Shown: positions 60,226 to 61,922, counted from the first letter of the stretch. The stretch is 64,000 nucleotides of DNA from Escherichia coli (GCF_003334785.1 NZ_QOWV01000006.1); one strand, 5' to 3'. Notes: generated by a model not told the origin, from the letters alone. Numbers and translations: made by a program.

Positions 60226-60336
60226 ATGACAATAGAAAAACACGAAAGAAGCACTAAGGATTTGGTGAAAGCAGCAGTATCGGGATGGCTGGGCACTGCG
60301 CTTGAATTTATGGATTTCAAGAGTCATGCGTGTTAA
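60226..60336 (+). pseudogene. ydfJ: 5' fragment of MFS transporter gene ydfJ, truncated by prophage insertion
   Basis: ATG at 60226 encodes MTIEKHERSTKDLVKAAVSGWLGTALEFMDF, typical of a metabolite:H+ symporter N-terminus, then diverges (KSHAC, stop) immediately before the prophage integrase. Confidence 0.7.
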
Positions 60337-60355
60337 CTATTTGATAAATATTAAA

Positions 60356-61636
60356 TTAATTTTTCATTGCTTCGTTATGGGGCATGGTTGGGGCAAACTC
60401 GCTTAACTGTGTATTTAACAAAGCTACCTGTGCATTATTGTTTTCAGACATCCATTTTCCGTATACCTGAAATACCATTTGCGCATCTGCATGGCCCATC
60501 TGGTTTGCTATAAATGCCGGGTTAGCACCAGCTGTCAGCGACCAGCAGGCATAAGTATGTCTCGACTGATATGATTTTCGATGGCGGAGTCCGGCACGTT
60601 TTATCGCTGCGTCCCACATCTGCCTTATTGAGTCAACGGTAAAATGGTCACCATAATTTTTTACTCTCGCTGACACTTCAGGTTGAAAAACAAAGGTGCA
60701 TTTTTGTTTTTCTGTTCTGCCATACTCTCTGAGGTGAACATCAATGATATGCTCTTTGCTCAGTCTCGTTAATGTCATCTGACTCCGGAGAGCGTCGATT
60801 GCTGGCTTAATAAGATGAATGACCCGATTGGTTCCCGCCTGTGTTTTTGGTACCGTGAAACGGTCTTTTGCTAAATTTCTCCTGATCATCATTGTTCCAT
60901 TTTTCAGATCTATGTCCTCCCATCCAAGTGCACACAGCTCACCAGGGCGAACTCCAGTATAAACAGAAACACACCATAAATTTTTTGCTTGCTGATTTCT
61001 GCACGCATCGATAAGACGGATAAATTCTTCCCGCGAAAGAGGATCCGGAATGGTTCTTGATTCCTTTAATGGCGAGATCCCCTTAAACGGATTATCTGCC
61101 AGGTAACCGTTATCAACACCAAACTGGAACACGGCGTTAAGATTTGTCATGTAATTATTTACAGTTACAGCCGATCTCCCTGGTTGTGTAACAATATAGT
61201 TACTTTTGGGGATCTGGTATCCAGTCAGTAACTCTTTACGAACCTCCAGTAATTTTTCTTTATTAATCGATGAGGCAAGATTTTTTTCACCGATTATGCT
61301 CAGGATATTTTTGATGACGGCACGGTATGTGTTGAGTGATGTTTTGGCGACTTCAGTTTCTTTCAGTGCCAGAAATTTTTCAGCCAGTTCTTTTATGGTT
61401 AAATCTTGTCGGGCCTCACCAAATTTTTCCAGATTGCGTGAGGAGGGAAACTGTTTTGCATAGTCGAAAACACCAGTTTTTATTGCGTAACAAACAGAGG
61501 AGCGTAGTTCACCTGCAACGCGCCTGTTTTTTGCTGTGTCAGGAACCCCCAGATTTTCCCTGACTCTTACGTCTTTATAAACAAACCAGATACGTAATTT
61601 CCCTCCATGGTTTTCCACGCCTGTCGGATATTTCAT
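60356..61636 (-). CDS. int: Prophage tyrosine integrase (lambdoid, Qin/Rac-like), apparently full length
   Basis: ORF 60356..61651; C-terminal catalytic region with R...HxxR...Y (RHTYACWSL..., VFQVYGKW); adjacent to interrupted host gene and an excisionase-like gene. Confidence 0.9.
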   Translation of the reverse strand: MKYPTGVENHGGKLRIWFVYKDVRVRENLGVPDTAKNRRVAGELRSSVCYAIKTGVFDYAKQFPSSRNLEKFGEARQDLTIKELAEKFLALKETEVAKTSLNTYRAVIKNILSIIGEKNLASSINKEKLLEVRKELLTGYQIPKSNYIVTQPGRSAVTVNNYMTNLNAVFQFGVDNGYLADNPFKGISPLKESRTIPDPLSREEFIRLIDACRNQQAKNLWCVSVYTGVRPGELCALGWEDIDLKNGTMMIRRNLAKDRFTVPKTQAGTNRVIHLIKPAIDALRSQMTLTRLSKEHIIDVHLREYGRTEKQKCTFVFQPEVSARVKNYGDHFTVDSIRQMWDAAIKRAGLRHRKSYQSRHTYACWSLTAGANPAFIANQMGHADAQMVFQVYGKWMSENNNAQVALLNTQLSEFAPTMPHNEAMKN

Positions 61637-61670
61637 TTCAACTTCTCTCATTAGTTAGTGTGGCTTTTAG

Positions 61671-61922
61671 TCAAGTAAGATGACGTCTTGGTCTCGCTGA
61701 TGCCTGGCGCTCAATCCAGCGATCAATTTCTTCCAGGTTGTAAAAGCATGGACTGTTATCCCATGGCATACCGTCATGAGCGACATGCTTATATTCCCTT
61801 CCTTCCATAAACGATTTTTCCCGGGCCTTTTTTAACGTACCTTTTTTTATTCCTTTCAGCGCAATTAACTGCTCTTCGGATACCCATTTGCCGGGAGAGA
61901 CAATCATGATTACTTCGCTCAT
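61671..61922 (-). CDS. xis: Prophage excisionase-like protein (Xis/AlpA-type)
   Basis: 83-aa ORF (MIVSPGKWVSEEQLIALKGIKKGTLKKAREKSFMEGREYKHV...) directly upstream of int on the same strand; start codon uncertain. Confidence 0.75.
   Translation of the reverse strand: MSEVIMIVSPGKWVSEEQLIALKGIKKGTLKKAREKSFMEGREYKHVAHDGMPWDNSPCFYNLEEIDRWIERQASARPRRHLT

Follow-up and report, generated by a model that had tools for sequence, protein, structure and literature searches.

Positions 60226-64000 of the 64,000-nt Escherichia coli stretch analysed here (the window) very probably contain the integrase-side junction, attL, of a lambdoid prophage of the Qin/mEp460 type that is inserted in ydfJ and appears to be a remnant. 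The junction carries full-length integrase and excisionase genes, the former truncated in the Qin prophage of K-12 and the latter missing there. The prophage family, its att site in ydfJ and functional phages with the same module have already been published, and in this respect nothing is new. The features of the locus are given in Table 1.

Table 1. Features of the ydfJ prophage junction and its surroundings, with positions counted from the first nucleotide of the window.
Feature	Position	Strand	Description
rspA	57890-59137	+	
rspB	to 60168	+	
ydfJ 5' stub	60226-60336	+	31 ydfJ codons, 5 phage-derived codons and stop; from translation
Extended imperfect att identity	60303-60321		TGAATT(T)ATGGATTTC(A/C)AG; 19 bp in the window, 18 bp in attP
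att core	60308-60318		11 bp, exact, TTATGGATTTC; common to attP, attB, the junction in the window and the far junction
P' arm	60319-60450		runs into the int 3' end; identical to the PhiR42_1 attP P' arm; outer limit approximate
int	60356-61636	-	tyrosine integrase, 426 aa; from Pfam, PHROG and identity to phage proteins
xis	61671-61922	-	excisionase, 83 aa
Exonuclease pseudogene (ydfE/exo family)	61995-63600	-	3' two-thirds; first ~288 codons cut by IS600
IS600 left end	63601-64000	+	orfA 63665-63967; continues past the window; IS3-family transposase (NCBIfam)
Restored attB, expected on excision			...GAATTTATGGATTTCCAGTTATATTCG...
Circular attP, expected on excision			...ACACCTGTGAATTATGGATTTCAAGAGTCATGCG...

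As the exact core is common to all four sites, the crossover must fall within its 11 bp. The longer imperfect identity around it has 19 bp in its bacterial form and 18 bp in attP, which agrees with the "18- or 19-bp att sequence" given for ydfJ prophages (PMC8112680, S7 Fig legend). Its left half is of the bacterial type, with the extra T, and its right half of the phage type, with A, and therefore the junction is attL (B-O-P') by the lambda convention, a hybrid of host and phage DNA at the ydfJ att core. Between the window and the far junction of K-12 a single common block was found, which reads ...CTTGAATTTATGGATTTCAAGAG... in the window and ...TGTGAATTATGGATTTCCAGTTA... at the far junction. 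Starting at the core and going right, the attP of phage mEp460_ev081 aligns with the window in 132/135 positions; going left, it aligns with the far junction of K-12 in 422/427, and the two alignments overlap solely in TGAATT(T)ATGGATTTC(A/C)AG. In PhiR42_1 attP is ACACCTGTGAATTATGGATTTCAAGAGTCATGCGTGTTAAC, with the same right arm as the window, and over window positions 60303-63601 this phage shows no mismatch, the lone gap being the T of the core.

An attB site was predicted by joining the left half of the window junction to the right half of ydfJ from K-12. The rebuilt site reads in frame (MTIEK...EFMDFQLYSLGAALVF...) and is found in one piece with 100% identity in many E. coli, the uninterrupted site being present in 2011 of 5426 genomes. 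The relations between attP, attB, attL and attR are thus exactly those expected from recombination by Int. Within the 64-kb window the core is present once, and neither a second att site nor the 3' part of ydfJ was found; the far junction TGAATTATGGATTTCCAG together with the 3' part of ydfJ is present in K-12, AST198 and VE-F10. The preliminary description of positions 60226-61922, which matches the sequence in coordinates and content, had placed a prophage boundary inside ydfJ, and the alignment of core and flanks to phage attP together with the uninterrupted ydfJ of other genomes bears this out. It also had ydfJ losing its reading frame near 60320. The gene does end there, at 60318, but a frameshift is ruled out, since ydfJ homology stops at the crossover and phage DNA starts.

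Two further sequence features were seen around the site. Around attP there are three copies of a CAACTAT(T/C)TG-like motif: one in the P' arm (window 60334-60345) and two, of which one is inverted, in the P arm. These repeats are candidate arm-type Int sites. At this motif the window and PhiR42_1 have TTAACTATTTG and mEp460 has TCAACTATTTG. A stretch of 21 nt in the 3' end of int, at 60425-60445 and 127 nt from the core, agrees with the attP core region in 18/21 positions (ACCTGTGCATTATTGTTTTCA vs ACCTGTGAATTATGGATTTCA). It was rejected as a second core, since it hardly exceeds shuffled controls and nothing similar was seen in related phages that use other cores, and the resemblance is probably due to chance.

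Translation of the ydfJ stub from the ATG at 60226 gives MTIEKHERSTKDLVKAAVSGWLGTALEFMDF from the 31 ydfJ codons; five further residues, KSHAC, come before the stop codon at 60334-60336. This 36-codon open reading frame is ynfP of K-12 (b4534, annotated with 111 nt), to which it is identical on the DNA level without any difference inside. Qin has been described at the 5' end of ydfJ with 28 ydfJ codons lost (PMC6379469). Most probably, site-specific recombination by Int inserted the phage at codons 28-31 of ydfJ, an MFS transporter gene that starts just downstream of rspAB. The 31-codon stub thereby became fused to five phage codons, creating the reading frame known as ynfP in K-12, and the remaining 427 ydfJ codons were moved to the other end of the prophage, beyond the window.

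Taking positions 57890-60336 of the window and K-12 together, rspA, rspB, ydfJ and ydfI point in one direction with short gaps and look like a single sugar-acid cluster, in which the prophage both truncates ydfJ and parts ydfJ'-ydfI from rspAB. Just upstream of rspA, in the ynfA-rspA intergenic region, the window has a G at 57867 that is missing in K-12. Further away, rsxC contains internal tandem-like repeats of ~96 nt with 87-91% identity (window 3968-4489), which appeared as off-diagonal self-hits in the comparison of the window with K-12.

The int reading frame, stop included, spans the interval given in Table 1, and an in-frame ATG five codons upstream would extend it to 431 aa. An identical gene of 1281 nt is annotated in RefSeq as 'site-specific integrase' (WP_000876958.1). 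Both expected domains were detected with Pfam, an arm-binding domain at aa 4-67 (PF12167, Arm-DNA-bind_2, E=8.5e-22) and the catalytic domain at aa 201-392 (PF00589, Phage_integrase, E=8.4e-18), and the protein matches PHROG 1 integrase (2.8e-75) as well as PHROG 216 integrase. It agrees with the PhiR42_1 integrase in 426/426 positions, and its identity to the integrases of mEp460_ev081 (99.1%), HannyBb and Tritos is 99.1-99.5%. No defect in int was found on alignment to the phage homologues. A complete integrase of about 426 codons had been proposed for this position, and the uninterrupted frame, the full length relative to the phage homologue and the presence of both domains agree with this.

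Tyrosine recombinases share the catalytic set R-K-H-R-H/W-Y. By alignment the corresponding residues of the integrase are R230, K264, R359, H382 and Y392, whereas a tyrosine, Y356, takes the position of H308 of lambda Int: codons 356-360 (window 60569-60583) read Y-Q-S-R-H where lambda Int has H308-E-L-R311. VT1-Sakai and the Stx phages that integrate in yecE have integrases with the same arrangement, Y356-x-x-R359-H360, H382 and Y392, and the tyrosine is also found in mEp460. As it is shared by these integrases, mEp460 being a functional phage, the tyrosine is probably a trait of the family and not a defect, and Y356 was rejected as an inactivating mutation. As MAFFT alignment against lambda Int shifts the HxxR box by three residues, HMMER and family alignments were used instead. 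A PDB sequence search retrieved distant relatives alone (Tn1549 Int and XerA), which served to place the catalytic motifs.

The xis gene lies 34 nt upstream of int. Its product matches PF06806 (DUF1233, putative excisionase, 1.9e-31) and PHROG 539 excisionase (1.4e-35) and does not differ from the Xis proteins of PhiR42_1 and mEp460_ev081 (100% identity); no model matched in an NCBIfam scan of the protein. The identical RefSeq entry is named 'excisionase family protein' (WP_000005552.1). The Xis-like gene noted beforehand upstream of int is therefore, with its 83 codons, its PF06806 match and its equality to phage Xis proteins, well founded. An Rfam scan of the entire window at gathering thresholds gave no matches.

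The chromosomal surroundings are nearly those of K-12. Against MG1655 the window is 100% identical over positions 1-7062 and 99.98% identical (10 SNPs) over 7063-56062, and 56063-61515 contains three differences, of which one alone falls in int (L302 here, F in K-12); altogether identity over 1-61515 is 99.95-100%. The K-12 Qin prophage (ynfP, intQ' and ydfJ', b4534-b1579-b1543) has the same insertion point, core, ydfJ stub and 3' 1158 nt of int in a chromosomal context that is the same with 99.98-100% identity. The K-12 annotation lists ynfP, intQ (pseudogene, b1579), IS2E and ydfE (pseudogene) and places the boundary of 'cryptic prophage Qin' in the stub. Homology to K-12 stops at 61515, the start of IS2E, and the first codon of intQ corresponds to codon 41 of int in the window. 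On sequence comparison intQ is thus the same gene truncated by an IS2 fragment. With codons 1-40 of int, K-12 has lost over half of the arm-binding domain as well as the start of the gene and its promoter-proximal region; xis and the 3' part of exo are likewise gone. In the int-xis-exo region K-12 therefore carries the IS2E fragment, whereas the window keeps the int 5' end, xis and the 3' part of exo but has IS600 in exo. Excision of Qin in K-12 was undetected by Wang et al., who ascribed this to the inactive intQ (PMC3105296), and the preliminary statement that the Qin integrase of K-12 is defective holds, the suggested alignment to intQ revealing the missing codons and the single difference at codon 302. 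Since the lesion in K-12 is associated with IS2 and the window, from a close relative, does not have it, the K-12 defect is lineage-specific. The source strain appears as a very close relative of K-12, with a Qin remnant decayed via IS600 rather than IS2E.

The preliminary description also implied that an intact copy would be rare, and this does not hold. With a threshold of at least 80% coverage, the segment from rspB over the stub and int to xis is present in 2357 of 5426 complete E. coli genomes (~43%), in most of them with at least 99% identity, and an intact int-xis pair at ydfJ is therefore the norm and not the exception. In a published survey, Qin-locus prophages were reported in 48% of 638 Escherichia/Shigella genomes (PMC6379469).

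Upstream of xis the open frame of the exonuclease remnant spans 61995-63626 (543 codons) and matches PHROG 20376/2082. The full gene has 2472 nt in strain cq9 and in PhiR42_1, homology to the latter ends at 63601, and RefSeq labels the identical remnant 'incomplete, missing N-terminus'. Transcription of IS600 is directed away from exo-xis-int. AST198, which matches with 100% over the junction, has here an annotated 'IS3-like element IS600 family transposase', and the exo-IS600 junction segment was seen in ~40 complete E. coli genomes (at least 80% coverage). In VE-F10 the IS600 contains an IS30; otherwise the final 25 kb of the window match this genome with 100% identity, and the genes of the region are arranged in the same order. 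The IS600 of AST198 is a simple insertion, and a separate deletion of 4.6 kb just beyond it takes ydfD, dicB, dicF, ydfABC, dicA, dicC and cII; the block from terminase to tail is also gone, as in K-12. Both AST198 and VE-F10 carry elements of 22.7 kb with IS600 at the same site, in which dicA/dicC/dicB/cII and the genes from terminase to tail are missing but the far core and the 3' part of ydfJ are kept.

Because the window is nearly K-12 (~99.98%) and its IS600 in exo is shared with genomes carrying ~23-kb remnants, we infer for the source strain a defective remnant similar to those of its closest relatives; both the remnant state and the presence of attR are read from these relatives (AST198, VE-F10 and K-12) and not from the source genome. 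In the relatives with the same IS600 junction the ~23-kb remnant is without the immunity region, the dicB operon promoter and the morphogenesis genes. The dicA/dicC/dicB region is kept in K-12, in contrast to the closest relatives of the window.

The suggestion that the element is still excisable is only partly supported. It draws on the intactness of Int, Xis and the phage arm of the junction, and judged from their sequences, the module of Int, Xis and P' arm is probably biochemically competent. IS600 at ~63601, however, severs xis-int from the rest of the early leftward operon, and in relatives with this insertion the immunity switch (dicA/dicC/dicB/cII) is deleted. The DicA-repressed dicBp is the pL-like promoter of the leftward operon (bioRxiv 10.1101/2023.04.14.536235) and is missing in AST198 and VE-F10. 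IS600 would part xis-int from dicBp, the usual driver of this operon, and thus any excision would be rare and uninduced, its products being a non-viable circle and a restored ydfJ. The odds that such excision could be measured are roughly even.

The most serious alternative, to which we give a somewhat less than even chance, is that the element is permanently grounded and the intact int and xis frames reflect recent inactivation. The cause would be either a lack of xis-int transcription, with IS600 inserted and the pL-type promoter gone, or decay of the far att arm. IS600 stands between xis-int and all upstream prophage DNA with its transposase reading away, and dicA, dicC, dicBp and cII are lost in the relatives. 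A consensus promoter and terminator scan of 60150-63700, which is insensitive and, with fewer sites than in shuffled sequences, uninformative, gave nothing resembling a promoter on the minus strand ahead of xis or int, weakly in line with a lack of transcription. Relative to PhiR42_1 attP, the P arm of AST198 and VE-F10 has seven differences between -111 and -321, which would fit a decayed far arm; that of K-12 has three substitutions and an extra A at -70. The int-xis-exo DNA is without mismatch to the active phage, leaving little time for decay. Against permanent grounding, cryptic prophages of K-12 such as rac, CP4-6 and CP4-57 still excise, with frequencies of 1e-4 to 1e-6 or lower, although a normal induction circuit is lacking (PMC3105296). 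Weak or read-through transcription of xis-int is possible, and core and P' arm are perfect.

It is very unlikely that a complete, inducible prophage of the mEp460/PhiR42_1 type continues beyond the window, with IS600 affecting only a non-essential exo gene. By analogy with red/exo of lambda, genes of the exo type should be dispensable for lytic growth, and with int-xis-exo DNA identical to PhiR42_1 such a prophage could be imagined. However, the examined genomes that share the exact IS600 junction or 100% identity over 25 kb (AST198, VE-F10) all contain ~23-kb remnants with the terminase-to-tail deletion of the K-12 type, the window is nearly K-12, and IS600 would be polar on the transcription of xis-int from the leftward early promoter. 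That chance reading frames or an assembly artefact mimic a true att junction has a negligible probability, as the identical junction is found in thousands of independent complete genomes and attP, attB, attL and attR are related exactly as site-specific recombination predicts.

The closest known systems are the phages PhiR42_1 (PV340562.1), mEp460_ev081 (LR597641.1), HannyBb and Tritos, with Int 99.1-100% and Xis 100% identical, and in all four the order is exo-xis-int-attP; the P' arm of attP is identical to the window in PhiR42_1 and differs by 2 nt in mEp460. These phages have genomes of 45-49 kb with the full lambda-like set of head, tail, immunity and replication genes, whereas the window holds the integrated left end with exo cut by IS600. 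mEp460_ev081, in which dicB/dicF/dicAC/rem are present, has been described as a functional temperate phage (bioRxiv 10.1101/2023.04.14.536235; PMC6969025). PhiR42_1 is a 48.7-kb phage with a complete genome in GenBank and an intact attP; a literature search for it gave no match and its status as an induced phage is taken from the GenBank record alone. The PPydfJ prophages of STEC/EPEC share the ydfJ target and the 18/19-bp att length (Nakamura et al., 2021, PMC8112680), and the circular attP form was amplified by PCR from one ydfJ prophage, PPydfJ-R of O26:H11 11368 (PMC8112680). These are prophages and clusters carrying effectors (nleC, nleG), likened to the window element by target and att length.

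Like in lambda, Int combines an arm-binding with a core-binding/catalytic domain, int adjoins attP with the P' arm overlapping its 3' end, and xis precedes int in the leftward early operon. Unlike in lambda, Int is only ~25% identical to lambda Int and has the tyrosine in place of H308, Xis belongs to the PF06806 family and its gene does not overlap int, and the target is a protein-coding gene, which becomes disrupted.

A further reading, which we regard as highly improbable, is that the intact Int-Xis-att set has been kept on a dead Qin remnant since the host benefits from rare or controlled excision, the sole support being the intactness of the module and its wide distribution. If true, precise excision would rebuild full-length ydfJ directly downstream of rspAB, rejoined with ydfI, and the remnant would be a reversible switch ('active lysogeny') for a cluster of sugar-acid transport and catabolism in a K-12-like strain.

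Outside annotation the importance of the finding is small, and the contrast between the intact integrase and that of K-12 is real and unsurprising. The 'defective integrase' of K-12 is an accident of the K-12 lineage, an IS2-associated deletion, and not a property of the Qin family. A strain close to K-12 with a sequence-perfect set of Int, Xis and attL would provide a natural control for excision tests of Qin remnants, and the Int/Xis set may be a source of a ydfJ-targeting integrase.
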